From Peptococcaceae bacterium UBA2264 (GTDB lineage: Bacteria > Bacillota > Desulfitobacteriia > Desulfitobacteriales > Desulfitobacteriaceae): 51,549 bases of DNA. The stretch is from positions 1 through 51,549 of the forward strand of contig DDXI01000068.1 in the NCBI GenBank assembly GCA_002347475.1, read 5' to 3'. Positions 808-19,463 of this stretch are shown here, piece after piece; the first letter of the stretch is position 1, and every line of letters begins with the position of its first letter. The notes under the pieces were generated by a model, which searched no databases, was not told where the DNA came from, and saw only the letters and a list, made by a program, of their open reading frames with translations. A program made the position numbers and the translations under genes.

Positions 808-810
808 CCT

Positions 811-1398: not shown

Positions 1399-1415
1399 GC
1401 ATGGAGGATTAGCAA

Positions 1416-1802
1416 ATGGATAAAGAACGAAGCGCAGTTATTACGATCGGTGGTCAGGAATATGAAATGCTTCTGACCACCAAGGCTACGAAGGAGATCG
1501 CCAAGAGATACGGCGGTCTTTCTAATTTGGGCGAAAAACTCATGAAAACCGAGAACTTTGAAATGGCCCTGGACGAGGTGGTGTGGCTTATAACCCTGCT
1601 GGCCAATCAATCAGTGCTGGTCCACAACCTGCAGAGCCCTTCCAAGAAGAAAACCCTTCTGACTGAGGAGGCGGTGGAGCTGTTGACCTCTCCCTTCGAA
1701 CTGGCGGATTACAAAAACGCCATTATGGAGGCCATGTATAAAGGAACGAAACGCGAGGTTGAAAGCGAGGAGGAATCCTCAAAAAACGCACAGGTCGGGT
1801 AA
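1416..1802 (+). CDS. Tail assembly chaperone (gpG analogue)
   Basis: A 128-aa acidic protein between the major tail and tape measure genes, ending just after a slippery heptamer. Confidence 0.7.
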   Translation: MDKERSAVITIGGQEYEMLLTTKATKEIAKRYGGLSNLGEKLMKTENFEMALDEVVWLITLLANQSVLVHNLQSPSKKKTLLTEEAVELLTSPFELADYKNAIMEAMYKGTKREVESEEESSKNAQVG

Positions 1803-1990
1803 GCGACGAGGAGTTGTTTGCCCGGCTGATTTTTTATGGTGTTTCCCTCCTGCACCGTTCCGAGCAGGAGGTCTGGCTGATGCCGATTGGCTATTTGCTG
1901 GATCAGTGGGAGGTTTACAAGCAGTTTAACGGACTTGCTAAAGCGAAACGCGAGTATTACATCGATGAAATCATACCAAATGGGATCTAA
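1416..1990 (+). CDS. Tail assembly chaperone, -1 frameshift fusion product (gpGT analogue)
   Basis: My hand translation of the -1 frame after 1781 gives 'KKRTGRVSDEELFARLIFYGVSLLHRSEQEVWLMPIGYLLDQWEVYKQFNGLAKAKREYYIDEIIPNGI*'. It ends 16 nt before the tape measure start. Confidence 0.55.
1781..1787 (+). promoter_or_regulatory. -1 programmed ribosomal frameshift slippery heptamer A_AAA_AAC
   Basis: In the zero frame the sequence reads tcA AAA AAC, 13 nt before the stop. The -1 frame stays open from here to TAA at 1988-1990. Confidence 0.6.
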
Positions 1991-2005
1991 GGAGGTGGTG
2001 AGAAT

Positions 2006-4099: not shown

Positions 4100-4428
4100 G
4101 TAAACTATATTCCGGATCAACGCTGATAACGCGATTTGTCCGGTTGGTTAAACAGGTTGAGCCTCGCAAGATAACGGATACCTTGTTGGACGGCTCCGAC
4201 TTTGTTCAAATTATCGGAACGGCCCCTGAACGGTTGGATATTGAGTTAAGCTGCGACCTAACCGGTAAAAAACTGATCAATGAAATCGACGCCTCGGGTG
4301 GTTTGCTCACGGTATTTGATAAAGACGGCAATCAATACAGCACTCGGATCATCAATAAAGCGGGCTGGAAAACAGCCGGAAGCAAATACTATCAGACGAC
4401 TTTAACAGCCGGGGTGGTGACGGAATGA
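4096..4428 (+). CDS. Phage tail-tip/baseplate-associated protein (unknown family)
   Basis: Its start overlaps the tape measure stop (ATGA); the call rests on synteny only. Confidence 0.45.
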   Translation: MSKLYSGSTLITRFVRLVKQVEPRKITDTLLDGSDFVQIIGTAPERLDIELSCDLTGKKLINEIDASGGLLTVFDKDGNQYSTRIINKAGWKTAGSKYYQTTLTAGVVTE

Positions 4429-5819
4429 GAACCATACCGGCTGAGCTACTTAACAGGGTCAAAAGAAAGTGGCAAGTAACCGCTGAAAACGCGAATCCCG
4501 GCATGAAGGCGTATTTGAGCCGGGGCCTCATCAATGAGCTGTTTCAGGTGTATACGATACAGGCGGGCGAAAATCTTGAAGCAGTTGATGTGGCAGTAAA
4601 GAGAGTATCCGCTGTAGGAATTCCCGCAGAAGTTTTTGCGTTATGTTTGGACAATGACGTCGCAAGCGTTAAGACAAAACCTCTACCCTATGATGTGCTT
4701 ATCCCTTGGATATCGGAATTTACGGTAGCAAGCGGAGTTTCAGATGCGGCTATAGAATTTGATGGGTATTGGGAATACAGCTTCGACGAGCTCCGATATA
4801 ATTTTATAACTGTTGGGGACCCTTGGATTTTTTATGTCCAAAGCGGTACACTGTATGCTCAGCAAGGGCAGGCTTCGCCGCTTGTACTGGCTACCGTTGT
4901 TTCAAAGGTGGCTGCTATTCGTGGATGGGTTCCTGCGAATGGCGATACAAACAAGGACCAAGGATTGATTGTCGCTTACGTTAAGTCGGATGGTCACGTG
5001 TATTACAGAAATTACTGCATACAAGAAGGCGGGGGTCAGAGTTGGGAGGAGGAAACTCAGATTGTCGAGTTTACCGGGACCGCTGCGTCAGTGGCATTAT
5101 TCCGAACAAATGACTTTAGGATTGGTGTGCTTTGTGAGAATACAGATGAGTCGCTATATTATACAGTAACAACGCGTAATTGGGGCGGTATGTCCTTCCC
5201 TGCAGAACTTTTCTCGATTGTCGCTTCCTTGGTTAGCGTAGGAGTTGTCGCGTATGAAGTTCAAACTTACGGGTACAGTGCGATAGATGAAACACTTCAA
5301 ATAGCTGTTACTGGAACACAGGCAATCGTTAATATATATAGCTCTACACCGGAAAGCGCTCAAGTTTATTTGACCGGCGGTACAGTGGTTGATGACAGAA
5401 CATTTACGCTTGAATTTAATTGTCCGGTGTGGGCATGGGATATGGAAAAAGCACTTAGAAGTGTAACGCTTTATCCAATAATTGAAATTAGTATAGACGG
5501 TGCTACTGTGACATACACCTCTGCCATAGATATAGATACTGACGGGTTCAATGTTACTTTGGCTGGCGGCATTTTCATTGGTGTTGTAAGTCAAGGCAGA
5601 CAGCTTATATATGGCGGTGGCAGTACAAATGTCATGGGTGAAATACAGCCGCATATAGCTACCTTGACTATGGATGTCGTATCAGTAGAAAAAAATGCAA
5701 CGGCGTATGAAACCGTATTGTATCCCTATACCGCGCTACCAACTCACACGCTCACAATGGAGCTTTCGTATGACGCGGCGTCTTTTGCACTTACCGAGAC
5801 AGGTACAGAGCCAATATAA
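4425..5819 (+). CDS. Phage tail structural protein (unknown family)
   Basis: ATGA overlap with the upstream gene. The 464-aa product lies in the distal-tail block. Confidence 0.45.
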   Translation: MRTIPAELLNRVKRKWQVTAENANPGMKAYLSRGLINELFQVYTIQAGENLEAVDVAVKRVSAVGIPAEVFALCLDNDVASVKTKPLPYDVLIPWISEFTVASGVSDAAIEFDGYWEYSFDELRYNFITVGDPWIFYVQSGTLYAQQGQASPLVLATVVSKVAAIRGWVPANGDTNKDQGLIVAYVKSDGHVYYRNYCIQEGGGQSWEEETQIVEFTGTAASVALFRTNDFRIGVLCENTDESLYYTVTTRNWGGMSFPAELFSIVASLVSVGVVAYEVQTYGYSAIDETLQIAVTGTQAIVNIYSSTPESAQVYLTGGTVVDDRTFTLEFNCPVWAWDMEKALRSVTLYPIIEISIDGATVTYTSAIDIDTDGFNVTLAGGIFIGVVSQGRQLIYGGGSTNVMGEIQPHIATLTMDVVSVEKNATAYETVLYPYTALPTHTLTMELSYDAASFALTETGTEPI

Positions 5820-5833
5820 AGGGGTGATAAATA

Positions 5834-7312
5834 GTGATTAAGCAAAATGTTGATTTACCAAAGCTGCATAATTTTTTTACGATTAAAGTAATCGACGCAA
5901 AAACTAAAAAGGTTATACAAAACGAAAGATGCGAAAACATTGTTTTAACACAGATTTATGAGCATTGGTTTAAGGATACTGTGTATAACGGAATAAATGC
6001 TATGGCTTATGGAGACGGCACCGGGACAATAGCTGCATCAAGGACAACGCTTTTTTCGGAAAAAGGAAGAATAAACCTAACGGGCGTTGGCATAGTTACA
6101 GAACCCACAATAGTGACATTGACGGGGAAGATCGTCCTCTCTGAATCGGCATACATCGGCGGGATTATCAGCGAACTTGGACTGGTGCACAATAAAGGTA
6201 GTTATGGAACGGCAAGGCTCGCAACGCATGCCATGTTGGTGGACAGTGAAGGAGCTCCAATTACAATAGGGCCAAAAACGAATACTCAAATATGGGAAAT
6301 TTACTGTACAGCATATCTTCAAAAAGGCGCGGGGATGACCGACTTTCCAAATAATCTGTCCACTATGTTTTCATCCCAGGGCACGAGTTCCTCATCAAGA
6401 CGGTTATTCAGTGCAAGTGTATTTCCACAAAATATCGCATTGAGTTCCTCTGGGAGTTATGATGCTGGGACCAAAACTCTGACAATGAGTAATACGAACA
6501 TAGCAACTTCGGCCGGTAATAGCGATGGCTTTAGTATGTTTGAGACAACCGATATTCTAGGTATCAATATTAGTCCTCTCAGTCCCAGTTTTCAGTCATT
6601 CCCTGACCATGATGCTTTTCCGGTATTCACATTTTCTGAACGAAGTATTGGTTCAGGGGATGGTGTGAAGAAGTTTTTCGGTTTTGACAATGGTTTTTTT
6701 ATTGAGGGTTCAGAGGTCGTAAAGGTTGACGGGGTCACTAAGATAAAGGATGTTGACTATATACTGCATCAAGGTTATAGACAAATACTGAACCGAAATG
6801 ACTACGCCTTACCTTATAATGGCAGGAAAACAATAGCCGCGTACAATAGCGACAGCAGTAAGACTATTGGAACATTGGTTACAGCAGATGCGGTATCTAA
6901 TGTGGGTTTCAGCATTCCAAGATATGGGGTGCTTGATTTTGGCGAAGTGGTTAATATAAAAGACTTTTATGTAGGTACACCTACCGTGACATCTTCGAGA
7001 ACAGCTTATTATGCCTTTAGTTTGGATGGATCAACCTGGTTTGGACAGGCCGGGTACACTATACCCGGGTGGGATTACTGGATGGCGGTGCATTTGAATG
7101 AAGTAGTGAAGGCGCGCTATGTATGGATAGATGCGGGAGGCTCGTCTGCTGGGACTTTTAATAAGTTTGTGTACTATGGGCCTCCACAGGTGGAATTTCT
7201 AAGTCCGCCCGCTAACAGTACCGCAATAACAGCAACCTGGCAAACAGATATACCACCTAAAAATACAAATTTCTTTTATGACATTAACTATATTGTCGGT
7301 GGCTCGTGGTAA
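5834..7312 (+). CDS. Putative receptor-binding tail protein with C-terminal discoidin (F5/8 type C)-like domain
   Basis: GTG start follows AAGGGGTGA. The C-terminal 'VLDFGEVVNIKDFYV...YYAFSLDGSTW...VKARYVWI' resembles the galactose-binding-like domain pattern. Confidence 0.45.
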   Translation: MIKQNVDLPKLHNFFTIKVIDAKTKKVIQNERCENIVLTQIYEHWFKDTVYNGINAMAYGDGTGTIAASRTTLFSEKGRINLTGVGIVTEPTIVTLTGKIVLSESAYIGGIISELGLVHNKGSYGTARLATHAMLVDSEGAPITIGPKTNTQIWEIYCTAYLQKGAGMTDFPNNLSTMFSSQGTSSSSRRLFSASVFPQNIALSSSGSYDAGTKTLTMSNTNIATSAGNSDGFSMFETTDILGINISPLSPSFQSFPDHDAFPVFTFSERSIGSGDGVKKFFGFDNGFFIEGSEVVKVDGVTKIKDVDYILHQGYRQILNRNDYALPYNGRKTIAAYNSDSSKTIGTLVTADAVSNVGFSIPRYGVLDFGEVVNIKDFYVGTPTVTSSRTAYYAFSLDGSTWFGQAGYTIPGWDYWMAVHLNEVVKARYVWIDAGGSSAGTFNKFVYYGPPQVEFLSPPANSTAITATWQTDIPPKNTNFFYDINYIVGGSW

Positions 7313-7328
7313 AGGAAGGTGATCGTCA

Positions 7329-8729
7329 ATGGAACTGGTTTTTGAACCTTCCGTAAGCCTTGGCAGCGGGACCAATCCTGCAGTACTGCATGTACCGGAT
7401 AATTCGGTGTATTTATTTACTGTTGATGGCGGCCGTCTGAAAGCCCAAAAATGGGAACCGGAAACGGGTGATGTTCCCTGGGACACTCCTGTGTTTGGGA
7501 ACGCGACGATTGCCACAAGGGATAAGAATTTATCTCTTGTGCGTCTGAAGAATGTTCCGCGTGTCGGTATATTCGGGGCCTGGCATCAGGACGAGGTATT
7601 AGACGGCGAAACAGTCGTAACGCATGAACGTCAACGGCTTGCAATATGGGATGCCATAACTGATATCTCCAATTATCTTGAAAGCGGAAACATCCGGCTT
7701 GATCTGAACAACATTATCTCCAGCGCGAGTCTCACGTTTAAGAATCCAAAGCAGAGATTGTCCGGGGAGGTTAATAGCATAATAACGCCCGGCAATAAAA
7801 TTGAGCTTTATTTTGTAGCTGGAGATTCCGAGGAGTACCAGATGGGCGTTTTTTATGTCGACAGAACCGAGATGAGCGCAACCGGTGAAAGCATGGACCT
7901 AGACCTGAGAAACATCAGCGGCAAGCTTCTAAAGGACCAGACCTTTGATGAAAACAACAGCTATCCTATCGACGTATATGCATACGTGGTTGCGGCTATT
8001 TTAGACAATGCTGGAATAGCCGACTACCAAATACAGCAGCCTCCTGATCCTGAGACGGCATGGCAATGCGGTATAGAATACCCTTCCGATATGGATATGC
8101 TGACCGGTTTAAACGAGTTTTTGAAGATGGCCTTATCCTGGACCGCAGTCGAAACCCTTGACGGTCAAATTATCGTGGGGTCGTCAACAAATTATGCTGA
8201 GCTAACGGGGTTGTATGGCAATTACGAGTTTGAACGTGGAGCAGATCTAACAAGCCGGGGCGTTACCAGGGACGACGATGATGTGTATAGTCGAGTATGT
8301 TATCAAAGTAAAGAGTCGACGGGCGGAACAATGGTTAAAGCCTATGCCGAGGTTTTACATGCCCTTGAATGGGCAAGCGCGCCCCATAAGACTCTGTATG
8401 TAACACTTGCGGACGATACCACGCTGTCGGAGCTGCAAGAGCAGGCGGACGAATTGGCACAGCGGCTGGCATACGCCGGTATCGTGGAGCAATTTTCAGG
8501 ACCGTTCAGGCCGCATATCATACCCGGAGACGAGGCGACTATAACCGAGGCTGACAGCTCTGTCCGCTTAGTAGGATTAATAACAACAGTCGAGCATTCT
8601 TTTGGCGACAAAGGCTTTACGACCAGCTTCACGGTGGACGGTGCCGGGAGAAAAGGCAAGCCGCAGCTCAAAGACATGATGCAGGCCAGAGACAGCTCGG
8701 CAAACTCATCCGTTAAAAGGTTATATTAA
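7329..8729 (+). CDS. Phage tail/baseplate structural protein (unknown family)
   Basis: A 466-aa product, the last structural gene before the lysis cassette, preceded by SD GGAAGGTG. Confidence 0.45.
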   Translation: MELVFEPSVSLGSGTNPAVLHVPDNSVYLFTVDGGRLKAQKWEPETGDVPWDTPVFGNATIATRDKNLSLVRLKNVPRVGIFGAWHQDEVLDGETVVTHERQRLAIWDAITDISNYLESGNIRLDLNNIISSASLTFKNPKQRLSGEVNSIITPGNKIELYFVAGDSEEYQMGVFYVDRTEMSATGESMDLDLRNISGKLLKDQTFDENNSYPIDVYAYVVAAILDNAGIADYQIQQPPDPETAWQCGIEYPSDMDMLTGLNEFLKMALSWTAVETLDGQIIVGSSTNYAELTGLYGNYEFERGADLTSRGVTRDDDDVYSRVCYQSKESTGGTMVKAYAEVLHALEWASAPHKTLYVTLADDTTLSELQEQADELAQRLAYAGIVEQFSGPFRPHIIPGDEATITEADSSVRLVGLITTVEHSFGDKGFTTSFTVDGAGRKGKPQLKDMMQARDSSANSSVKRLY

Positions 8730-8800
8730 TCCGTTTCAAAACTAATGCCTGCTCAGGCTAAAAACATTATTTAGGTAGGCAACAGTAATAAGTTGCTTTT

Positions 8801-8830
8801 GGAGCCAAAAGGCTCTTTTTTATTTTTATC
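8801..8830 (+). terminator. Weak rho-independent terminator after the tail operon
   Basis: gagcc-aaaa-ggctc hairpin followed by ttttttattttt. Confidence 0.4.
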
Positions 8831-8845
8831 AAGGAGGTTTAGAAA

Positions 8846-9244
8846 ATGAAGGACATTATTAACACGCTTCAAATTGTCGTAGCCGCTGTGGGCGGCTACA
8901 TCGGGTACTTCCTGGGCGGCTGGGATGGTTTCCTATATGGTTTGGTAGCCTTTGTGGTTATCGACTATCTGACCGGAATCATGGTAGCCATCCTGGAAAA
9001 ACGCCTCTCAAGCGGGGTGGGCTTTCGGGGCATCTTCAAGAAGGTGCTGATTTTTTCACTGGTAGCGGTGGCGCATATTGTGGATTCGCAGCTTATTCAA
9101 GCCGGAAGCGCCGTACGTACTGCCGTCATCTTCTTCTATTTATCTAATGAAGGCATCAGCATTGTTGAGAATGCGGCAAAAATCGGACTGCCTATACCCG
9201 AGAAATTAAAAACAGTCTTGGAACAGTTGAACAAGGAGGACTAA
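8846..9244 (+). CDS. Phage holin (holin family 4_1 / LL-H type)
   Basis: A 132-aa protein with multiple TM helices. The 'VIDYLTGI...GFRGIFKK...YLSNEGISIVENAAKIGLPIP' motifs are typical of this holin family. Confidence 0.9.
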   Translation: MKDIINTLQIVVAAVGGYIGYFLGGWDGFLYGLVAFVVIDYLTGIMVAILEKRLSSGVGFRGIFKKVLIFSLVAVAHIVDSQLIQAGSAVRTAVIFFYLSNEGISIVENAAKIGLPIPEKLKTVLEQLNKED

Positions 9245-9247
9245 TAG

Positions 9248-9961
9248 ATGAACCTGCATAAACTCATTCTGACGAATAATGCCTGCTATAAGGCAGGCAG
9301 AACCATCACACCGAAAGGCATCATGGTGCATTCCACCGGGGCGAACAATCCGAACCTGAAACGCTATGTCGGACCTGACGACGGACTGCTCGGCAAGAAC
9401 CAGTACAACAACCACTGGAATCAGGACAAACCGGACGGCCGGCAGGTCTGCGTCCACGGCTTCATCGGCAAGCTGGTAGACGGAAGCATCGCTACTTATC
9501 AGACGCTCCCTTGGAACCACAGGGGCTGGCATGCAGGCGGTTCCGCCAACGATACACATATCGGTTTTGAAATCTGCGAGGATGGTCTGACGGACGCCTC
9601 GTATTTTTCTGCCGTTTACAAAGAAGCCGTTGAGCTATGTACTTATCTCTGCAAGCAATACGGACTCACCGAGGAGAATATCATCTGCCACAGCGAGGGA
9701 GCTACCCTCGGCATTGCCAGCATCCATAGTGATGTGATGCATTGGTTTCCCAAGCACGGTAAAAGTATGGATACCTTCCGTGCAGAGGTTGGGAAGCTGC
9801 TCGCGGCATCCACTAGCGCTACTACCGAGCCAGCTTCGACTGCATCGAAAACCATTTATCGTGTTCAGGTTGGAGCTTACTCCATCAAAGCAAATGCCGA
9901 CACAATGCTCGCCAAAGTAAAAGCCGCCGGATTCACTGACACTTTCATCAAAACTGAATAG
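9248..9961 (+). CDS. Endolysin: N-acetylmuramoyl-L-alanine amidase (Amidase_2/PGRP type) with C-terminal SPOR-like domain
   Basis: The N-terminal 'GIMVHSTGA...WHAGG...HIGFEICE' pattern matches this amidase type. A Ser/Thr/Ala-rich linker is followed by 'IYRVQVGAYSIKANADTMLAKVKAAGF', a SPOR-like signature. Confidence 0.88.
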   Translation: MNLHKLILTNNACYKAGRTITPKGIMVHSTGANNPNLKRYVGPDDGLLGKNQYNNHWNQDKPDGRQVCVHGFIGKLVDGSIATYQTLPWNHRGWHAGGSANDTHIGFEICEDGLTDASYFSAVYKEAVELCTYLCKQYGLTEENIICHSEGATLGIASIHSDVMHWFPKHGKSMDTFRAEVGKLLAASTSATTEPASTASKTIYRVQVGAYSIKANADTMLAKVKAAGFTDTFIKTE

Positions 9962-9985
9962 AGAAGTAATTTTATCTACGGATTT

Positions 9986-10030
9986 ACTCCCCTCGCTGTC
10001 CTTTTGGAAGTGAGGGGAGTTTTCTTTTTT
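9986..10030 (+). terminator. Rho-independent terminator after the lysis cassette
   Basis: A 9-bp stem actcccctc/gaggggagt (9986-9994 / 10012-10020) followed by tttctttttt. Confidence 0.75.
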
Positions 10031-10064
10031 CTCCTCATTGAGATTCAGGGAGGAGGAACAGAAC

Positions 10065-10277
10065 ATGCCAAACATTAATGCCGCAACGCCGGAAAGCATT
10101 TGTGCGAGAATTCCTGTTTCACAGGAGCAATTGCAATGTGAAATGGATTATATAAGAGCGCAGCGGATACTCGATTCCATGCTTCAAAAGGGACATATTT
10201 CTTTGTCGGAATTCAATAAAATCACCCTACTGAACCGCCAGTCTTTCTCACCCGCGTTGGCACAGATAATGCCATAA
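10065..10277 (+). CDS. Small helical protein preceding the recombinase genes (unknown function)
   Basis: ATG follows GGGAGGAGG. The ~70-aa product is a small ORF of a kind I recall upstream of large serine recombinases in Clostridia; that recollection is unverified. Confidence 0.4.
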   Translation: MPNINAATPESICARIPVSQEQLQCEMDYIRAQRILDSMLQKGHISLSEFNKITLLNRQSFSPALAQIMP

Positions 10278-10337
10278 AACCGTTGATATAACTCTGCTTC
10301 AGAGTTAATATGTGACACTGACCAAGGAGGTGAAAAT

Positions 10338-11900
10338 TTGAAAAAGGTTACGAAAATTGCTCCAACCACCCGGCCTACTGCAGAACAATCCCAGCTGCGT
10401 GTCGCCGCCTACGCACGTGTTTCGACCGACAGCGATGAGCAGCTGGTCAGCCTTGAAACCCAGAAAAACCATTACGAATCCTACATCAAGGCCAATCCAG
10501 AATGGGAGTTTGCGGGGCTTTACTATGACGAGGGCATAACGGGCACCAAAAAGGAAAAAAGGCCCGAGCTGCTTCGGATGATTGCCGATTGCGAACAAAG
10601 CAAAATCGACCTCATCGTCACAAAGTCGATCAGCCGATTTGCCCGAAACACCATGGATTGTCTGGGTTTGGTCCGAAAACTGACCAAGCTTGGCATTTCT
10701 GTGTATTTTGAAAGTGAGAACATCAACACCGGGTCAATGGAAAGTGAACTCATGCTGTCGATCCTGAGTGGACTGGCCGAGGGTGAATCTGCGTCCATCG
10801 CTGAGAACAACAAATGGTCCATACAGCGACGCTTTCAAAATGGTACTTATAAAATCGGCTGTTCGCCCTATGGCTACGATGCCGTAGATGGAGAACTGAT
10901 TGTGAATGAACAGCAGGCTGAAATTGTCCGGTTTATATTTTCTGAGATTCTGTCTGGGAAAAGCCTTCACAAAATTGCGGATGCTCTCAATCAACGCAAC
11001 ATTCCATCTAAAAAAGGTGGTCGATGGAAGGCTAATGCCCTTCGAAATATGGTCGTAAACGAGAAGTACATCGGCGATGCCCTCTTTCAAAAGACCTATA
11101 GCGATAGCCAGTTCAACAGGCATAAGAACGATGGCGAAAAAGAGCAATATCTGATTCGCGATCATCATGAGCCGATTATCAGCCGTGAGGATTTTGAGAC
11201 GGTTCAGAAAGTCATTGAGCAGCGCGGTAAGGAAAAAGGCGTAGAAAAGTACAGCGAGAAATACCAGAAACGATATCCCTTTTCCGGGAAAATCATCTGC
11301 GGCCAATGCGGTGATACTTTTAAGCGTCGTACACATTCCAGCGGGAGAAAATACATCGCGTGGTGCTGCTCGACTCATATTGAAAGCATCGAAAAATGTT
11401 CTATGAAATACATCCCGGATTCCGATTTTGAGTATGCCTTTATTACGATGATGAACAAGCTTATTTTTAGCCATCAATTCGTACTTAAGCCTTTACTGAT
11501 TGGCCTGCGCGGAGTAAATACAGACGATAGCCTCATAAGCATTCAAGACATTGATAAAAAGCTGGAGGAAAACGCTGAACAACAAAATGTACTGGTCAAC
11601 CTAATGGCCAAAGGCTATCTCGACCGCCCAGTTTATAAGAAAAGCAGTAACAATTTACTACAGGAAGCTGATCGACTGCAACGCCAAAAAGAGTCCATCA
11701 ACCGCTTACTACAGAACGGGAACCAGCATTTGAGCGAAGTGAGCGCCCTGCTGCAATATGCCACAAAAGCAACCATGGTTAAGCGCTTTGATGAAGATGT
11801 TTTCAAGACTTTTGTGAACCGGATTATTGTTTATTCACGGACTGAGATTGGCTTTGAACTGAAATGTGGCATTACCCTGAAAGAAAGGCTGGTGTCATAA
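10338..11900 (+). CDS. Large serine recombinase (resolvase + recombinase + zinc-ribbon domains)
   Basis: TTG start follows GGAGGTG. It has the catalytic '[11 protein letters not shown]' and 'SISRFARNT' motifs, the recombinase-domain 'NEKYIGD', and the Cys cluster 'CGQCGD...WCC'. Confidence 0.9.
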   Translation: MKKVTKIAPTTRPTAEQSQLRVAAYARVSTDSDEQLVSLETQKNHYESYIKANPEWEFAGLYYDEGITGTKKEKRPELLRMIADCEQSKIDLIVTKSISRFARNTMDCLGLVRKLTKLGISVYFESENINTGSMESELMLSILSGLAEGESASIAENNKWSIQRRFQNGTYKIGCSPYGYDAVDGELIVNEQQAEIVRFIFSEILSGKSLHKIADALNQRNIPSKKGGRWKANALRNMVVNEKYIGDALFQKTYSDSQFNRHKNDGEKEQYLIRDHHEPIISREDFETVQKVIEQRGKEKGVEKYSEKYQKRYPFSGKIICGQCGDTFKRRTHSSGRKYIAWCCSTHIESIEKCSMKYIPDSDFEYAFITMMNKLIFSHQFVLKPLLIGLRGVNTDDSLISIQDIDKKLEENAEQQNVLVNLMAKGYLDRPVYKKSSNNLLQEADRLQRQKESINRLLQNGNQHLSEVSALLQYATKATMVKRFDEDVFKTFVNRIIVYSRTEIGFELKCGITLKERLVS

Positions 11901-12323
11901 ATGAGCCACACCCCATTTGGATATCGGATAATAAACGGCAAAGCCGTAATCGATGAGATTGCCGCTGAGCAGATAAAGGCCCTATTCCTCGCTTATTTAA
12001 ACGGTGATTCCTTAGCGTATGCTGCACAAAAGGCTGGAATCCTAATCTCCCATGCAGTCATCGGAAAGATGCTCCGAAATGTCCGCTACCTAGGCGACGA
12101 TTACTATCCGGCAATTATAGAACCGGACATTTTTGAGTCAACCGAAAAGGAACGCATTAGGCGAGCTGAAAAACTCGGCCGAATCTTTGAACCAAAAGAA
12201 AATATTGAGGTCGTTTATCCTTTAACCTTCCATATCAAAGAAGGTAATGAGCAGTTCGACGACCCCTTCCAGCAAGCAGAATACGCCTACAGCCTGATCG
12301 AAAGAGAGGTGCAAAATGACTGA
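11901..12323 (+). CDS. Recombinase-domain-only protein (no resolvase catalytic domain)
   Basis: Its ATG directly abuts the upstream TAA. '[22 protein letters not shown]...[10 protein letters not shown]' matches only the recombinase (DNA-binding) domain pattern, and no catalytic Ser motif is present. Confidence 0.7.
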
Positions 12324-13890
12324 AGCAAAAATGAGTGTCACCGTACTCCCAGCCAGAAAACAAGCCCGTGGCAAAAATGACGATGAAGAAAAAGCAAAAC
12401 TCCGTGTAGCCGCCTACTGCCGCGTTTCCACGGATAGTGACGAGCAAGCCACCAGCTATGAAGCGCAGATAGAACACTACACGGCCTACATCAATGGCCA
12501 CCCGGACTGGCAACTGGCCGGAATTTATGCGGATGACGGCATCTCCGGTACTAACACCAAGAAGCGAGAGGAATTCAACCGCATGATCGATGAGTGCATG
12601 GCCGGTAATATCGACATGGTCATTACCAAGTCCATCAGCCGGTTTGCACGTAACACGCTGGACTGCCTGAAATATATCCGGCAGCTGAAAGAAAAAAGCA
12701 TCCCCGTCTACTTTGAGAAAGAAAACATCAATTCCATGGATTCCAAAGGCGAGGTCATGCTCACCATTATGGCATCCCTTGCCCAGCAGGAGAGCCAATC
12801 TTTGAGTCAGAACGTGAAGCTGGGTCTGCAATACCGCTACCAGCAAGGTGAAATTCAGGTCAACTGCAACCGCTTTCTTGGGTTTGCCAGGGATGAAAAT
12901 AAGCGCTTGATCATTGTCCCAGAGGAAGCTAAAATCATAAAACGTATCTACCGGGAATACCTTGAGGGAGCCAGTATGTTGAAAATCGCCCGTGGCCTTG
13001 AAGCAGATGGGATTCTGACCGGAGCAGGCAATGAAAAATGGCATACCAGCAACATCAACCAGATTTTGCGAAATGAAAAGTATATCGGCGATGCTCTCCT
13101 GCAAAAAACATATACCACGGACTTCCTCACGAAGACGCGAGTAAAGAACCATGGCATTGTTCCGCAGTATTATGTGGAAAACAGCCATGAGGCAATCATC
13201 CCTCGAGAAATTTTCATGCAGGTGCAGGAGGAGCTCATCCGTCGCCGCATCGTTCATACCAGCCCGAACGGGAAGAATAGAACCTTCAGCAGTATTCACT
13301 GCTTCTCTAACATGATTATTTGCGGAGGCTGCGGAGAGTTTTACCGCAGGATTCATTGGAACAACCGAGGTAAAAAGTCAGTTGTTTGGCGCTGCATCAG
13401 CAGATTAGAAAATACCGGACTTTACTGCGACGCCCGAACGATCCTGGAAAGCACAATCGAACAAGTACTGGTCACTGCAATCAATCAGACGCTCTGCGAC
13501 AAGGACTCCTTCCTTGTCACTCTGCAGAATAACATCGAAGCCGTCTTAACACACGGAAATGATCATACTCTGGCAAGCATCGACACGCGACTGTCGGAAC
13601 TGCAAGCCGAGCTTTTAAAACTGGCCAGCTCCAGAACCGATTATGAAAAAGTTGGCGATGAAATTTACCGTCTTCGCGAGGAAAAGCAGAAGCTTCAGCT
13701 GGAAAGCGCTGGACGGGATGATCTAAAAAAACGTATTTCCGACATGAGTACATTCCTAGAGGAACAGCCCACCGCCATTACAGAATATTACGAGCAGCTT
13801 GTCCGGCGGTTGATTGAAAAGGTTACTGTTTTTGAGGATAAGTTTACTGTGGAATTCAAGTCCGGTGTTGCGGTGGATGTGGAGGGGTAA
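12316..13890 (+). CDS. Large serine recombinase (second full-length copy)
   Basis: It overlaps the upstream gene by 8 nt. It has '[11 protein letters not shown]' and 'SISRFARNT' motifs, the 'CGGCGE...WRC' zinc ribbon and a C-terminal coiled coil. Confidence 0.9.
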
Positions 13891-13976
13891 CGTGTTGAGT
13901 AAGGTACTTTACGCAAAATTGGTGTATAGTGCCTTTTTCTTTATTTATATTCAGAAAGCATTGTGCTTTAAAAGGG

Positions 13977-15197
13977 TTATGTACGGCAATTAGAAAAATG
14001 TATCAAACCCTTAGTTACCCCTTTTTCTTTATTTTGATTACACGGTTCCAATTTAAGATAATCTAAAATATTATTCATCGTTTCAAACATCGTATAGATT
14101 GGGGCTGCATATTCTTCCACTGGTGCTTCTGATTTAAATCTATATTTCGTGACGAATCCAATAGTCAAGTTATGCTCCACATTAGTTTTACATTCCAGCA
14201 AAGCCTTGGATATACCTGTTTTTTTAAATACATTAATATGTGGCAAGGCGGGCGAAATTTTTGAAAGCAGCATTACATCTTTTCTAAAATAGAGCCCACT
14301 TTCTAATTCATCATAATTTTTTATGCTTTCCAAGTAAAAACTGTTATAATCCATGAAATTATAAATACAGTTATTATCTATTCCTAAACACTCAAACTGT
14401 TTATAATTGGTTAACTCATTTATTGTTTGATATTTTCGCAGAGAGTCTATTAGTCTTATGGAATTGTAAATTAGAAATCGATTCCCAGAAGGATATAGCA
14501 AATTGATGTTTTTTTCTACATTAGATATTATTTCAGAATAGTCCGTTTTGACTTGAAACACATCAAAAACATTGCCTTTTAATCTCTTACTTATTTCTTC
14601 TACAGTAACGTTTTTAAAATCAAATGTATATTCAAGGACTTCAGTTCCGTATATAATCCGCAACAAGTTATTATACAGTATATTCATTTCCTCTAAAATA
14701 TCTTTTACTAAGTATTGCTTGTAAAATCTTTGATTGGTTGCATCTATCATTGCACAACTAATCCATTCAGATAAATCTTTATAAAAATTATTGTTTTTGA
14801 TATCAAAGGTTGAGATTCTTTTATGATTAATATCAAAGGCTAATTTATCAATATTACTTGCTTTTGATACTAATAATATCGTGCGAGTTTCACCAAGTAA
14901 GGCCATTGCTATACCGGCTTCATACATTACATTAGGATTTGAAACCTGAGAATCATTTTTAAGTATTGCTATATGTGATAAATCTCCAATGAATACATCG
15001 CTATCTGAGATTTGGCTCCAAATTTTTTCTATAATATCGGGAGAGCCGGACTCATCTTGAGTAGGTGCATAAATAATATCTAAATCTAATTGTTTTGTCT
15101 TTAACAAATGCTTTTTAGATTCAGATAGCTGTTTTTTGACAAATCGTGCTATATCACTTTCTTGACTTTGCCATGCTAAAAATATTTTTCCTTTCAT
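13977..15197 (-). CDS. Prophage-end cargo protein: N-terminal TIR-like / nucleoside 2-deoxyribosyltransferase-like fold plus ~270-aa unknown C-terminal domain
   Basis: The 406-aa ORF is clean and has an SD. The N-terminal pattern is 'KIFLAWQSQ...DVFIGDLS...NPNVMYEAGIAMALLGETRTILLV' with a conserved Glu near residue 93. The gene is visibly AT-rich compared with its flanks and lies on the opposite strand to the phage genes. Confidence 0.6.
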   Translation of the reverse strand: MKGKIFLAWQSQESDIARFVKKQLSESKKHLLKTKQLDLDIIYAPTQDESGSPDIIEKIWSQISDSDVFIGDLSHIAILKNDSQVSNPNVMYEAGIAMALLGETRTILLVSKASNIDKLAFDINHKRISTFDIKNNNFYKDLSEWISCAMIDATNQRFYKQYLVKDILEEMNILYNNLLRIIYGTEVLEYTFDFKNVTVEEISKRLKGNVFDVFQVKTDYSEIISNVEKNINLLYPSGNRFLIYNSIRLIDSLRKYQTINELTNYKQFECLGIDNNCIYNFMDYNSFYLESIKNYDELESGLYFRKDVMLLSKISPALPHINVFKKTGISKALLECKTNVEHNLTIGFVTKYRFKSEAPVEEYAAPIYTMFETMNNILDYLKLEPCNQNKEKGVTKGLIHFSNCRT

Positions 15198-15230
15198 TCC
15201 CCTGTTTCCTCTCTGCGTTTGAATTTACAC

Positions 15231-15515
15231 ATCCAAACTGTACACTCATGTCTACCCAAATCAAAAAACATCTAAATCGACCACTACGCGAGCACAAAAA
15301 ACCCAAAACATCTATATTGACCACTCACTAACCACTGACATCTAAATCGCTCTGTCACAAGGATAAAGGCTTGTTTAGATATGTTCCCACGAAGCAAAAA
15401 ATCTTAATTTTATGGTTCAGATTTTTGACCCTCAAAACACACAAATGGCTTGAATACTGGGCTTTCTACGCCCCTACTCTTTCACCCTCGACATCAATAC
15501 TACCGTCTCAACGTG
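15231..15515. repeat. Element arm copy A (prophage side), ending in the 23-bp att core (15493-15515)
   Basis: It aligns by eye along its whole length with 17936-18218, with roughly two-thirds identity in conserved blocks. The identical core is atcaatactaccgtctcaacgtg. Confidence 0.8.
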
Positions 15516-15677
15516 AGATAGAGTGACTAATTTAGATGTCATGTTTTCCGGCTTCCAAAATCCTCGCAAAGCCCGCAAAACAGCCATTTGCAGTGCTTTC
15601 AAAAATCAATTTTCTTTGACATCAATCCTGAACTTGCATCATAGGGTCGGGAGCGTTGTATTGATGTCGCCTTTTTC

Positions 15678-16787
15678 TCATATATGAATCACCCTTGGCC
15701 GTTTCTTCCAATCGCTAAGCTCTAGTGTCCAATACCTCGCCCATTCCTTCATATCCTGATATTCCGGATGATTAGGATTCAGGATGATTTCGCGGAAGTT
15801 CGCAAACCCTCCAACTCCGCCCACATCCTCCGGTGGCGTTTGCCCACTTGCCTCCAGCAGATAAGGAGATTCCTTATCATGCTCTTCGATCACACGAATA
15901 AGTTGAATATCATGCTCCCAGTTATCCCCCATATCATATGTATAAAGCAACTGCTTGTACTTTGGTAAGAATTCGGATAAGGTATGCCGCTCCATTAAAA
16001 TAGCATCTTTATCGTATCCCAGATCTTCCTCGGAAGATACAATTCTGGCAACCGGCTTACGCTTACTATCACTGAAAATGGCAAAGTCATAAAGGTGACA
16101 GTTTTCCCATCCATACACAGACTGCAGCACCTTATGTAATTGAGAGAATTCAATGTCAGCGGGAACAATAAGCCTCCGCTCCGCCTTATATGCTTCCAGA
16201 TCAAGTGTGACCAGCAATTCAAAAGCCCGGTACTTATAGGGCTGCCTTCCTGTAAGCTCGGAAAGTGCGTTAATCATCTCTTGGGAAGGGGTGAACCCAT
16301 TGTTCGAGCTGCCGGAACAATCAACATAACGGTAATTTGCGGAAGCTCCAACCGTGTCGTTGAACATTTTCGCGATGCCATTATATTCTCTTCCAACATA
16401 GAAAGCGCACTCTAATCCCGCTTTCGTCACCCAGGATGCAGTTTGTCTGTTGCTATTTTTGACAAACTCCGCTTCGCCTGCCAACCGCATATATTCACTC
16501 ACCATCTCAGGATTTAGATTCATCGAAAGAAGCGTGTTTGAAATGGCAGCCGTCATCATTTCTGCAACATTTTTCAGATCTTTCCGTTTGACTTGATAAA
16601 TCGCAACGTTAAAACGTGTGGTATTGTTCACCAAGACAAGCATATCCTCTGATCTGCGATTGTCCCAGACCTTTGTCCAATTTGCCGTCCATGAGAATAA
16701 CGGATTGATGGTTTCGTCAATAGCAGGAAGCTTTAATTCCAAAGCATCTGCTAACTTTTTCGTCAATGCAATTTGCATGATTTGCAC
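15678..16787 (-). CDS. Plasmid pRiA4b ORF-3 (MM3350-like) family protein with extra N-terminal domain
   Basis: The C-terminal half has 'YTYDMGDNWEH' and 'PPEDVGGVGGF' motifs characteristic of PRiA4_ORF3. I did not recognise the N-terminal ~190 aa. Confidence 0.75.
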   Translation of the reverse strand: MQIMQIALTKKLADALELKLPAIDETINPLFSWTANWTKVWDNRRSEDMLVLVNNTTRFNVAIYQVKRKDLKNVAEMMTAAISNTLLSMNLNPEMVSEYMRLAGEAEFVKNSNRQTASWVTKAGLECAFYVGREYNGIAKMFNDTVGASANYRYVDCSGSSNNGFTPSQEMINALSELTGRQPYKYRAFELLVTLDLEAYKAERRLIVPADIEFSQLHKVLQSVYGWENCHLYDFAIFSDSKRKPVARIVSSEEDLGYDKDAILMERHTLSEFLPKYKQLLYTYDMGDNWEHDIQLIRVIEEHDKESPYLLEASGQTPPEDVGGVGGFANFREIILNPNHPEYQDMKEWARYWTLELSDWKKRPRVIHI

Positions 16788-16847
16788 TCCCTTCCGGTAA
16801 AAGCAGATCGTTCATCTCATATTACCGAAGTAATAATAGAAATGGGG

Positions 16848-17825
16848 TTATTCAGTATTCTTTCGTTTTGAGCTGTAATGCGTTCCTTTTCTTTTTGCCG
16901 CTCCGTTAACAATTTCAATATTACTCCTGCGTTTCATTTCCTCTTGAGCTTGTTCGAATTTCTCAAGCGCGATAATCGGGTCATGAGCATCTTTCATTAA
17001 AAACTGTTCATATTCTCCATCATTCATGAACTGCTTATTATTTGGAAAATCCCCGGTATAGGTCTTTCCCAATAATACTTGTCCGATGTACTTCTCATTA
17101 CCTAGCACTGTCTGGATGGATTTTTTTGACCAAATATCTTTACCTTGTGGTGATTTAATGCCTCTATTATTAAGTTCTTTAGCTATAAGACCGATGCTGA
17201 GTCCGCTCAAATATAAATCAAAGATCTCGCGGACGACCTTGGCTTGCTCCTCATCGATAATGAGCTCGCCCTCTCCATTTTGTTTATAGCCAAAGCATTT
17301 GCGAGAATACAGCTTTGAATTTCCAGATATAAAACCACGCTTCAATCCCCACTTGATTGCTTCCCCTGTTGACTCGCTTTCGGCCTGAGCGATTGCCCCA
17401 AGTGCGGAGATAAGCATATCGTTATCGGCTTCACTGGTGCGTAAATTTTCATGATGAAAAATTACTTCTATTCCCAATCCTTTAAGTCTGCTCACCGTTT
17501 CAAGCAAGTCTACTGTGTTTCGTGCAAACCTGCTGATGGTTTTCACAAGTACAATATCAATTCTATTTTCGTAGCAATCAAAAATCAGCTTCTGGAAATC
17601 AGGCCGAAAAACATTGCCGCCAGAATCTCTGTCACTATAGACACCGTAAAGCATCCACTTTGGATTATCCTCCACAACTTGCTTTAATGTTTTGATTTGG
17701 ATATCCAAGCTTTCTTCCTGTGCTTCATGCGTCGTACTAACGCGACAATATATTGCGACCATTTTTAATCCCTGTGATTTGGCCGGAATCATTGTAACTG
17801 TCATTTTCGATTTTTCATTTTCCAT
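16848..17825 (-). CDS. Short serine recombinase (resolvase + recombinase domains, no zinc-ribbon/coiled-coil C-terminus)
   Basis: It has 'YCRVSTTHE' and 'TISRFARNT' motifs and 'NEKYIGQ'. It ends ~190 aa earlier than the two phage recombinases. The start was chosen at the ATG after GGGGTGA; the ORF stays open to 17849. Confidence 0.8.
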   Translation of the reverse strand: MENEKSKMTVTMIPAKSQGLKMVAIYCRVSTTHEAQEESLDIQIKTLKQVVEDNPKWMLYGVYSDRDSGGNVFRPDFQKLIFDCYENRIDIVLVKTISRFARNTVDLLETVSRLKGLGIEVIFHHENLRTSEADNDMLISALGAIAQAESESTGEAIKWGLKRGFISGNSKLYSRKCFGYKQNGEGELIIDEEQAKVVREIFDLYLSGLSIGLIAKELNNRGIKSPQGKDIWSKKSIQTVLGNEKYIGQVLLGKTYTGDFPNNKQFMNDGEYEQFLMKDAHDPIIALEKFEQAQEEMKRRSNIEIVNGAAKRKGTHYSSKRKNTE

Positions 17826-17935
17826 AACTTCACCCCATTCCGAGGTCATTAATGGTGATAGATAAGTAGACTAAATCGATTTTAAGCTCATCTTATGTAG
17901 TCTATACCTATATAATCAAGGCCGATTTTCACAAC

Positions 17936-18218
17936 ATCCAAACTGATTTCTCGACCTCAAAAAATCCAAAAACATCTAAATCGACCACTCAACAAGCGCA
18001 AAAAACTCAAAACATCTATCCTGACCACTCATCAATTACTGACATCTAAATCGACCACTCGCAAGGGTTTCAGGCGATATCGGTATGTTCCCACGAAGCA
18101 TAAAAATCACTTTTTTCAGGCTCCGATTCCAAATTCAAAATCACAGAAAAGCCTTATATCAAGCCTTTCCAGACACCCCGTTTTAAACCCTCGTAATCAA
18201 TACTACCGTCTCAACGTG
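17936..18218. repeat. Element arm copy B (mini-element side), ending in the 23-bp att core (18196-18218) and encoding the rumA C-terminus
   Basis: It is homologous to 15231-15515 and shares the same core and the same 18-bp motif array. Confidence 0.8.
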
Positions 18219-19463
18219 CTCAGTCCAGGGAAACATATCTATAGGCTGGACTCCGGTAACTCTATACCCGCCCCGAGTCAGCATACCAATGTCCCGGGCC
18301 AAAGTCCCCGGATCACAGGAAACATAGATCAGGCGCTGGGGCTTGATTTCCAGCAAACTTTGCCCGACTTGCGGATGTATGCCAGCCCGCGGGGGGTCCA
18401 GAACAACCACATCCGGTTTTTCCGGCAGTTTCCGGATCAGCGACTCGACTTTGCCCTGGAGAAATTCAACCTGGCAGTTGGCGAGCAAAACACTATTGGC
18501 AACATAATTCTGCCGGGCATCCTTAATAGCCGAGGGATTTTCCTCAAGGCCTGTTACTTTCCTGGCCCGGGAAGCCAGTAACAAGGCCAGGGTCCCAATC
18601 CCGGAATACAGATCCCAGACTGTTTCTTTCCCGCTCAGGCCGGCCCAATTCAATACCTGTTTATAAAGAACCTCTGTTTGCAGGGAATTAACCTGCAAGA
18701 AGGATTCGGGCGAGACCTTGAAGGTGAGATCAAGAATCGTCTGAGTGAAGACATCATCCCCCCACAATAACTCCGGGCTCTTTCGGGAATCGCCAGCCCA
18801 GACAGAACGCAGTCCTTCCCTGGCCAGATCAGCCCATTCCAGAACTTGCCTCAGGTTCGAAAGCCGGGCCGGCAACCCTTCCAGTAACAAGAGCCCCTCT
18901 CCTCTGGTGTTTTCCCTCAAGATAAGGGTATGTATCTCCGGATAACCCTCAGCCAACTGCTTTTTTAGCAGTCTGATCCAGCGGTTCATACGCTCACTCA
19001 GGAGAAGACAGTCCGCAAAGCTGATCGGAATATTGGATTTTTCCCGATAATATCCCCATTCAGCCCCGGCAGTACGATGCAAACGGGCTTTATTACGATA
19101 GCGCCAGGGGAAAGTCATGCCCAGAACAGGGTTGACCCCAGCCTGCACTTTGCCTATCCTTTGCAGGGCATCCTCAACCCAGCGCTGCTTCCAAAGCAGG
19201 GTTTCTTCATAGGTTGTATGCTGCAGCCGGCAGCCGCCGCAGGCCGGAAAAACAAGACAGGGTGCGGCCTGACGCAACACTGAAGGCTTAATTAAAGTTA
19301 GTAAACGGGCCCGCTGCCATTTCTTTTTTGTTGCACAGACCTCGACTTCCCCAATTTCTCCGGGCAGAAGCCCAGCTACGAATGTTGCTCTGCCGTTTAT
19401 GTAACCTATCCCTGAGCCATCTGAGGAGAGACGCAAACATTCCAGAATATTGTTATTATCCAT
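18183..19463 (-). CDS. rumA: 23S rRNA (uracil-C5)-methyltransferase, RumA/RlmD (TrmA) family
   Basis: It has an N-terminal TRAM-like region, the Fe-S cysteines 'C...CGGCRLQH', a SAM-binding 'DLYSGIGT' motif and the catalytic region 'YVSCDPGTLARD'. Confidence 0.9.
   Translation of the reverse strand: MDNNNILECLRLSSDGSGIGYINGRATFVAGLLPGEIGEVEVCATKKKWQRARLLTLIKPSVLRQAAPCLVFPACGGCRLQHTTYEETLLWKQRWVEDALQRIGKVQAGVNPVLGMTFPWRYRNKARLHRTAGAEWGYYREKSNIPISFADCLLLSERMNRWIRLLKKQLAEGYPEIHTLILRENTRGEGLLLLEGLPARLSNLRQVLEWADLAREGLRSVWAGDSRKSPELLWGDDVFTQTILDLTFKVSPESFLQVNSLQTEVLYKQVLNWAGLSGKETVWDLYSGIGTLALLLASRARKVTGLEENPSAIKDARQNYVANSVLLANCQVEFLQGKVESLIRKLPEKPDVVVLDPPRAGIHPQVGQSLLEIKPQRLIYVSCDPGTLARDIGMLTRGGYRVTGVQPIDMFPWTEHVETVVLITRV

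Follow-up and report, generated by a model that had tools for sequence, protein, structure and literature searches.

The gene considered here occupies positions 13977-15197 on the minus strand of a 51,549-nucleotide (nt) stretch of contig DDXI01000068.1 (Peptococcaceae bacterium UBA2264, assembly GCA_002347475.1), which was analysed at its full length and is referred to below as the window. It encodes a protein of 406 amino acids (aa) at one end of a prophage, for which a preliminary description, made from the sequence alone, had proposed a role as a single-gene anti-phage effector. The features on which the argument depends are as follows, with NDT denoting nucleoside 2'-deoxyribosyltransferase and att the attachment site.

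13977-15197, minus strand: candidate defence gene, 406 aa, with an ATG start and its stop codon at 13977-13979; TIR-like N-terminal domain and a C-terminal domain without recognisable fold
14802-15197, minus strand: TIR-like/NDT-like catalytic domain, residues 1-132, from PF10137, Foldseek and PDB profile search
14919-14921, minus strand: codon of E93, the putative catalytic glutamate, from its invariance and its alignment to the glutamates of PycTIR and NDTs
13980-14801, minus strand: C-terminal domain, residues 133-406, the proposed sensor; long helices, then an antiparallel beta/alpha subdomain in the predicted model
10338-13890, plus strand: integration module, comprising a large serine recombinase (10338-11900), a 140-aa open reading frame (ORF; 11901-12323) and a large serine recombinase (12316-13890), with Resolvase, Recombinase and Zn_ribbon_recom Pfam matches
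13891-15257, no strand: variable prophage cargo slot, from the last recombinase stop codon to the att arm
15258-15515, no strand: prophage att arm, mimicking the 3' end of rumA and the flank beyond it, and including the region upstream of the gene; 75% identical to 17962-18218
15493-15515 and 18196-18218, no strand: 23-nt att core ATCAATACTACCGTCTCAACGTG, identical in both arm copies
18183-19463, minus strand: rumA-like 23S rRNA (uracil-5)-methyltransferase gene, the integration target, with TRAM and tRNA_U5-meth_tr Pfam matches

The 406-aa frame does run opposite to the phage genes, as first described, the phage-type ORFs of at least 120 aa at 41-13890 all being on the plus strand. Its AT-richness, which had been judged by eye at roughly 30% G+C against 45-50% in the flanks, was computed as 29.6% G+C against about 47% in the flanks and 45.8% in the whole window; in 400-nt segments the G+C fraction is 0.27-0.31 inside the gene, 0.44-0.52 at 9000-13800 and 0.41-0.45 at 15200-16800. 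Pairwise comparison of the gene with three close homologs gave ratios of non-synonymous to synonymous substitution (dN/dS) of 0.09-0.13 overall, at dS values of 0.67-1.3, with 0.07-0.09 in the N-terminal and 0.09-0.14 in the C-terminal part. Since the ratio is close to 0.1 in both halves, the whole protein is under purifying selection, and the frame is not that of a decaying gene.

The gene had been placed between a trio of recombinases and an att arm. The position stands, with the recombinase stop codon at 13890 and the arm at 15258-15515, but the trio consists of two large serine recombinases (520 and 524 aa) and the 140-aa ORF, which has no Pfam match and whose end overlaps the start of the second recombinase. 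This small ORF may encode a recombination directionality factor or an accessory protein. As regards the target site, the att core at 18196-18218 lies within the last 12 codons of the rumA-like gene, whose product ends in PIDMFPWTEHVETVVLITRV before the stop, and the arm copy ending at 15515 would encode a terminus of HVETVVLMSRVKE and a stop; to the right of the cores, one sequence is unrelated to the other. In the related phage L039 the same arm is fused directly to the rumA reading frame, which there ends in QPIDMFPQTYHVECVVLMSRVDK and a stop. The arm repeat, the core within rumA and the L039 fusion therefore indicate that this phage family integrates at the rumA 3' end, where the phage DNA provides a substitute C-terminus for the gene product; rumA has been published as a target of serine-recombinase elements (PMC4701971, PMC11578063). 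The presence of the arm at 15258-15515 consequently places the 406-aa gene inside the prophage, in a slot of 1.37 kb between recombinase and arm.

The encoded protein and its family

The N-terminal domain was initially described as following a pattern common to the TIR-like (CAP12/Pycsar effector) and NDT-like families, and matches to both were indeed obtained by Pfam, Foldseek and PDB profile search. The only Pfam match of the window protein is to PF10137, the CAP12/Pycsar effector TIR domain, over residues 27-112 (25.7 bits against a gathering cut-off of 24.7). A family alignment was built from 33 full-length members sharing 28-86% identity, and PF10137 matches 31 of these at E<=0.1 (best 4.3e-6); the NDT profile PF05014 matches five weakly and below threshold (best E 0.0098), and TIR_2 matches three, also weakly. 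An AlphaFold2 model of the full protein calculated from the family alignment (predicted local distance difference test, pLDDT, 86; predicted template modelling score, pTM, 0.78) has as its top Foldseek neighbours in the PDB the TIR domains of TIR-STING proteins, 9lmq_D (E 2.7e-5) and 7un8_A (E 5e-5), the latter superposing on the predicted structure with a root mean square deviation of 3.0 over 152 columns. These are followed by the NDTs 8qc0, 8pqr and 2a0k (E 1e-4 to 4e-4) and, in third rank, by SPARTA TIR-APAZ. When the N-terminal family profile was compared with the PDB, the best match was PycTIR 8jsj (E 0.007), the family motif SNPNVMYELGIADALLG aligning on ARDNVHLEFGISLGVLG of that protein; the same profile matched trypanosomatid NDTs at E 0.2-0.3, with the PTx, ADLS and nucleophile (GTAFELG) motifs in register. 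The PADLOC matches are weak: models for CBASS-TIR effectors match 19 of the 33 members over the TIR part only, the PycTIR model matches residues 76-125 only (E 0.006), a ThsB model matches a single member, and no model matches the family at full length.

The motifs quoted in support of this fold, KIFLAWQSQ, DVFIGDLS and NPNVMYEAGIAMALLGETRTILLV, are all present in the translation, and the glutamate near residue 93 that had looked invariant is so in all 33 members. E93 aligns both with the glutamate of 'NVhlEfGis' in PycTIR and with that of 'GTAFElGyA' in NDTs, and is therefore at the catalytic glutamate position of both families, as had been supposed. A second motif, FDINHxR (F121, D122, N124, H125 and R127), is invariant and family-specific and lies outside the PycTIR alignment; that it binds the phosphate of a substrate is a guess only.

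Searching 5.8 billion proteins retrieved 72 relatives, of which approximately 40 are full length (31-98% identity) and approximately 30, of comparable length, make up a more distant group. The closest named relative is a hypothetical protein of Caproicibacterium amylolyticum (82% identity). There is no match to the 406-aa protein in NCBIfam, nor was one returned by phmmer with the full protein against PDB sequences; the sole match in PHROGs is a weak one to phrog_3634, which has no functional annotation. The homolog genes are all AT-rich (G+C 0.26-0.32) irrespective of flanks that range from 0.25 to 0.49, which fits a gene that moves between genomes. Of the 22 invariant positions in the 33-member alignment, 21 fall within residues 1-127, including F6, W9, Q10, P45, G51, P53, D72, N87, N89, V90, E93, G95, A97, G102, R105 and the five residues of the FDINHxR motif, and N176 is the only invariant residue in the C-terminal two thirds. 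The distant group retains all of the N-terminal motifs (FYSWQS, GSPDI, NPNVLIELG and PFDINHNR), including an equally invariant equivalent of E93 at E89, and its C-terminal part is collinear and barely recognisable; alignment of the two groups with hhalign gave a probability of 99.9% at full length and of 64% for the C-terminal part alone. Conservation of the N-terminal domain together with rapid divergence of the second domain between subfamilies is the behaviour expected of a specificity domain.

The claim that the C-terminal domain of some 270 residues is unrecognised held in each comparison made. Pfam matches to the domain in 21 family members amounted to scattered, non-recurrent noise, a PDB profile search returned nothing below E 0.067, and Foldseek gave nothing significant, with best E-values of 0.29 in the PDB and 0.06 in BFVD and no fold match to STING, SAVED, CARF, CNBD, SLOG or Macro domains. 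Likenesses to GAF, START/Bet v1 and LuxR receptor folds appeared with Foldseek probabilities of 0.02-0.1, which are not significant, and were not relied on. Modelled alone, residues 133-406 are nonetheless confidently predicted (pLDDT 87.9, pTM 0.85) to begin with two long helices (138-163 and 165-183), which lead into a helical bundle and finally into an antiparallel sheet that packs against a long helix. When 1.84 billion representative proteins were searched exhaustively with a profile of the domain, it appeared in 45 clusters only, 23 of them at E <1e-30, and was joined to no other fusion partner. In every full-length protein that carries it the domain starts at about residue 130, so that the architecture is always identical; the short matches are consistent with gene fragments on short contigs.

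The cargo slot and the contexts of homologs

The last recombinase has 273 relatives in IMG/VR, and the slot was compared across 80 of these loci, with cargo drawn from about 30 related phages. Nucleotide homology that extends from approximately 10050 ends at 13880-13890, at the recombinase stop codon, in 40 or more related IMG/VR phages, and in L039, L044, L046, L047, L048 and L082 it starts again after 0.9-3.1 kb, in a segment equivalent to 15230-15515 of the window. What lies between differs in nearly every phage: the closer sister phages hold one to three genes there, almost all antisense to the recombinase, and the cargo as a whole falls into 44 clusters, 37 of them singletons, none of which contains a relative of the window protein. 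In all 10 loci compared, the slot has a lower G+C content than the recombinase module. That a prophage end beside integrases should be a site for defence genes is borne out by the GajB, DarG, PDC-S50 and ThsB_TIR proteins among the following cargo of sister phages, all of it annotated as related to defence or conflict.

L040: GajB, E 9e-185
L068: DarG (Macro with a DprA/SLOG-like domain), E 4e-62
L085: PDC-S50 (Schlafen/AlbA_2), E 1e-90
L079: metallophosphoesterase matching a CBASS endonuclease effector and PDC-S60, E 8e-36
L044: ThsB_TIR and TPR-S protein
L074: 1267-aa TPR-PIN protein (PIN-TPR-GreABC)
L064: MBL/RMMBL protein
L073: HATPase_c protein

Another six or more cargo proteins (250-576 aa) are matched by neither Pfam nor PADLOC and are candidates for additional defence genes. 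Example slots, taken from L039-L085, are L039:4355-5440, L046:7645-8862, L047:7624-8586, L077:7631-9361, L082:7485-8237 and L073:8882-10078.

Homologs of the 406-aa gene were then considered in their own surroundings. In Caproicibacterium amylolyticum (L001, CP060696) the homolog, with the same arm upstream of it, is enclosed by the ends of two prophages that converge; the stretch with 79% nucleotide identity to 13664-15515 of the window includes a 78-aa fragment of the recombinase 3' end. At 3970-17826 of L001, one of these prophage ends has four serine recombinases and the other two, and the short island enclosed by them holds the homolog and the recombinase fragment together with a WYL/HTH regulator, a DJ-1/PfpI protein and a DUF5677 protein, a layout that suggests repeated integration and decay at one site. 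The IMG/VR contigs L026 and L028 carry the homolog after the last serine recombinase and behind lysin genes, so that its position relative to the recombinases at the phage end is alike in the window, L001, L026 and L028; in L026 it adjoins type I restriction-modification genes. The L028 homolog (9989-11199) appears as two separate ORFs, of 177 and 230 aa, because of a frameshift or pseudogene formation, or else through an error in sequencing.

Elsewhere, the homolog follows QatABCD, DUF3800, Vsr and an HD-CE/HATPase_c_3 protein in L002, precedes a 1311-aa nSTAND NTPase in L010, is found near a HEPN_Toprim_N protein in L119 and stands beside tyrosine integrases in L121-124, and in L007-9 it lies after an island of ParB_N, SNF2, radical-SAM and HATPase_c_3 genes and before toxin-antitoxin-like genes. 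Across approximately 12 independent homolog contexts no neighbouring gene is shared, and neither there nor in the window does a CD-NTase, pyrimidine cyclase or ThsA-type gene stand beside the gene, in keeping with the original view that this is not a canonical Thoeris, Pycsar or CBASS system. The contexts covered for a CD-NTase, by way of SMODS/CD-NTase Pfam families, were L001-L010 and L119-L124. The lack of a common neighbour implies that the protein acts by itself or together with some ubiquitous factor. In L005, a 284-aa ORF without Pfam match (8318-9172) ends 22 nt before a homolog with 46% identity to the window protein; it was rejected as a partner gene because it recurs in no other context. 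Next in the same locus come a group II intron reverse transcriptase and an IS1595 transposase.

The remaining features of the prophage end and of the adjoining sequence are listed below.

8846-9244, plus strand: holin, a phage gene upstream of the 406-aa gene
9248-9961, plus strand: amidase, likewise
15516-18195, minus strand: another small integrated element, or the remnant of one, lying between the att cores, from Pfam and repeat structure
15678-16787, minus strand: PRiA4_ORF3/DUF6933 protein, from Pfam
16848-17849, minus strand: 333-aa serine recombinase without zinc ribbon, from Pfam
17962-18195, no strand: second arm copy, 75% identical to the arm at 15258-15515

A plus-strand gene for a SHOCT protein is also among the phage genes upstream of the 406-aa gene. 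The two att cores and two arm copies around 15516-18218 point to tandem occupation of the rumA site. A relative of the truncated 333-aa recombinase, with 72% nucleotide identity, occurs in L082 (3-805) about 5 kb upstream of the recombinase module, and on the strength of this placement the truncated enzyme may belong to the same phage lineage as opposed to an unrelated element. Within the att arm upstream of the gene, the motif ACATCTAAATCG(ACCACT) occurs in direct orientation at 15268, 15308 (with two mismatches) and 15338, and it occurs once inverted at 15530 (15530-15541); the direct repeats (15268-15349) are conserved in the second arm copy at 17970-18060, and could be binding sites for the recombinase or an accessory factor, or operators of the cargo gene. 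Finally, a 24-nt imperfect inverted repeat (79% complementary) pairs 15489-15512, in the att core region, with 15646-15669, the two halves being 133 nt apart and the second just before the PRiA4_ORF3 stop codon.

Proposed function and rival explanations

The evidence is judged to tip, if not by much, towards the gene being a prophage-carried single-gene anti-phage system, acting by abortive infection or superinfection exclusion. An intact and constrained gene occupies a hypervariable slot, its product combines a TIR/NDT fold and an invariant glutamate with a C-terminal domain restricted to the family, and no partner gene is conserved; from a mobile, constrained, stand-alone gene of this kind in a hotspot that also carries recognised defence genes we infer a function of either type. 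The gene would be expressed in the lysogen antisense to the phage genes, with the protein held inactive. Upon infection by another phage, the C-terminal domain might recognise a phage component, or a change caused by the infection, and such recognition would cause the protein to oligomerise, bringing the TIR-like domains together into a working active site. E93 would then cleave an N-glycosidic bond, most likely that of NAD+ and less likely that of another N-glycoside, and depletion of NAD+ would arrest the infected cell before the phage cycle is completed.

Several observations weigh against this proposal. Defence, NADase activity, oligomerisation and sensing are each properties that we infer. 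The Pfam match of the window protein is marginal, exceeding its cut-off by 1 bit, and the PDB matches of the sequence profile are weak (E 0.007-0.3). The similarity to NDTs is nearly as good as that to TIR domains, so that NAD+ is no more than the probable substrate. Diversifying selection gave no signal in the putative sensor domain at the resolution of pairwise dN/dS, a promoter scan yielded nothing above the shuffled expectation, and no terminator was found. The contexts of L003 and L005 are not obviously defence islands, and cargo of the slot in sister phages includes an MFS transporter, a SAM methyltransferase, an IS256 transposase and MerR and HTH regulators, so that location in the hotspot is of itself no proof of defence. 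Moreover, tblastn against 50,697 GenBank phages returned no match, and the family is therefore rare.

The main rival concerns the chemistry. Within the same defence architecture, the N-terminal domain could be a nucleotide or nucleoside N-glycosidase of the deoxyribosyltransferase or LOG type. In place of NAD+ cleavage, it would strip the bases from (d)NMPs, (d)NTPs or another nucleotide, and immunity would follow as the nucleotide pool is depleted or corrupted. The Foldseek scores of the NDT structures come close to those of TIR-STING, the trypanosomatid NDT alignments span the three motifs PT(Q/D), (I/A)DLS and xExG, and the invariant FDINHxR motif lies beyond the reach of the PycTIR alignment. 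However, the weak PF05014 matches to five of the 33 members stand against PF10137 matches to 31, while PycTIR is the best sequence match in the PDB and TIR-STING domains are the best fold matches. To our knowledge, all characterised defence effectors of this sub-fold cleave NAD+, which also counts against an N-glycosidase, and this alternative is accordingly considered unlikely, albeit the most serious of those considered.

The second rival concerns the trigger, and supposes an orphan effector whose C-terminal domain does not sense a phage protein directly but binds a small-molecule second messenger, synthesised by an enzyme of the infecting phage or of some other locus in the host. In its favour, the characterised TIR effectors of the CAP12/PycTIR type are all ligand-activated (PMC11224242), and the antiparallel sheet on a long helix has as its weak Foldseek neighbours the ligand-binding folds named above, although none reaches significance. 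Conversely, the C-terminal domain resembles none of the receptor folds against which it was compared (STING, SAVED, CARF, CNBD, SLOG and Macro), and the approximately 12 contexts contain no cyclase, CD-NTase, ThsB-like producer or conserved neighbour; cargo that travels unaccompanied from one phage or genome to the next could not depend on a partner gene located elsewhere. Activation by such a messenger is thus regarded as improbable.

The remaining two explanations are disfavoured. NDT-like enzymes occur in phage nucleotide metabolism, and the gene, which is phage-borne and has the weak match to phrog_3634, could on that account serve the phage itself, either as an anti-defence enzyme directed against immune nucleotides or NAD-derived signals or as an enzyme of nucleotide salvage or DNA modification. 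However, it is antisense to all of the phage genes, its slot is one where sister phages carry defence genes of host type, its close homologs occur in chromosomal defence islands without phage genes (L002, L010), no homolog was found among the 50,697 sequenced phages, and a simple metabolic enzyme would not be expected to have so large a conserved C-terminal domain; a function of this kind is therefore very doubtful. That the gene is a decaying or functionless hitch-hiker, as the apparent frameshift in L028 and the recombinase fragment beside the L001 copy might intimate, is scarcely credible for a frame that is intact in the window, with dN/dS near 0.1 over both domains at dS 0.7-1.3 and 21 invariant residues retained down to 28% identity.

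A bolder version of the proposed single-gene function, in which the C-terminal domain is a new-fold sensor that responds directly to a phage component and switches on a TIR-like enzyme whose substrate, in view of the family-specific FDINHxR motif and the NDT-like motifs, may be other than NAD+ (a nucleotide N-glycosidase), is speculative and seems unlikely to hold in full. Were it true, a new sensor and possibly a new effector chemistry would be added to single-gene immunity in anaerobic Firmicutes, and the rumA-phage slot would become a discovery resource, with at least six further cargo proteins that have no detectable family.

Significance and relation to known systems

The kind of system envisaged here, a single-gene TIR-like sensor-effector carried as cargo of a prophage hotspot, is already known, and the candidate is in that sense conceptually expected. 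Two recent systematic surveys set aside stand-alone TIR or TIR-like genes, and Swarozyc was shown only in 2026 to be a directly phage-activated NADase; the present gene defines a second, unrelated family of the same proposed logic, with a putative sensor domain that lacks a recognisable fold. The family comes from gut and anaerobic Clostridia, in which few defence systems have been validated, and if confirmed would contribute a new sensing module to the repertoire of TIR effectors. No description of the family, its C-terminal domain or its hotspot was found in the searchable protein libraries or literature. Whatever the function of the gene, rumA-integrating phages have, between their last serine recombinase and the att arm, a previously undescribed defence hotspot, which can be mined by simple flank-based searches and has hundreds of relatives in IMG/VR, in which known systems are mixed with match-less proteins.

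With respect to the hotspot, the slot resembles the defence hotspots of P2 and P4 prophages (Rousset et al. 2022, PMC9122126) in that conserved phage flanks surround short, AT-rich and hypervariable cargo by the integration module, comprising known and unknown defence systems. The P2/P4 hotspots belong to Escherichia coli phages, whereas the phages described here integrate at rumA, use paired large serine recombinases and have Clostridia-type hosts; the slot also differs in lying between the recombinase and the att arm.

As for the protein, the predicted fold resembles that of NDTs (PF05014; 8qc0, 2a0k, 6qai), and in the weak profile alignments the position of the nucleophile glutamate and the PTx and ADLS motifs agree. 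However, NDTs are stand-alone metabolic enzymes of about 150 aa without a C-terminal domain, and the context of mobile elements and defence islands seen here differs from theirs. The CBASS effectors of the CAP12 type (TIR-STING and TIR-SAVED) and PycTIR provide the closest catalytic domain by PF10137, PADLOC (PDLC00731/732/729, PDLC02371), Foldseek and PDB profile, and the glutamate motif NVxxExG is common to them and to this family; these effectors combine the domain with a STING, SAVED or CNBD receptor and an adjacent CD-NTase or pyrimidine cyclase, none of which was found here. Thoeris offers a further parallel, ThsB being likewise a TIR-family protein in a defence context, and a ThsB_TIR and TPR-S protein occupies the same slot in the sister phage L044, but the ThsA-type effector partner is absent from the window and from the homolog contexts. 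A systematic survey of Thoeris discarded stand-alone TIR proteins (10.64898/2025.12.03.692087).

The comparison with Swarozyc is the most instructive. Its representative KpSwz is a single protein with a TIR-like DUF4062 domain (catalytic E97), a helical stalk and a C-terminal auxiliary domain, which is activated by binding of the phage portal and depletes NAD+ (10.64898/2026.05.01.722283). Its mechanism, in which the auxiliary domain senses a phage protein directly and loss of NAD+ leads to abortive infection, corresponds to that proposed for the present family. The present family is likewise encoded by a single gene, with an N-terminal TIR-like domain, long helices and a C-terminal auxiliary domain, an analogy that is architectural only; the glutamate lies near residue 95 in both (E97 in KpSwz, the putative E93 here), and this family, too, is found in defence islands. 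The two differ in that PF13271 (DUF4062) matches none of the 33 members at E<=0.1, as against 31 for PF10137, and in that the auxiliary domain of Swarozyc is described as HTH/winged, whereas a helical bundle with an antiparallel beta/alpha subdomain is predicted here. No KpSwz structure turned up in the copy of the PDB searched by Foldseek. The lack of a PF13271 match and the different C-terminal fold indicate that the family is not a member of Swarozyc, which is nevertheless, by analogy of architecture, its nearest experimentally characterised analogue.

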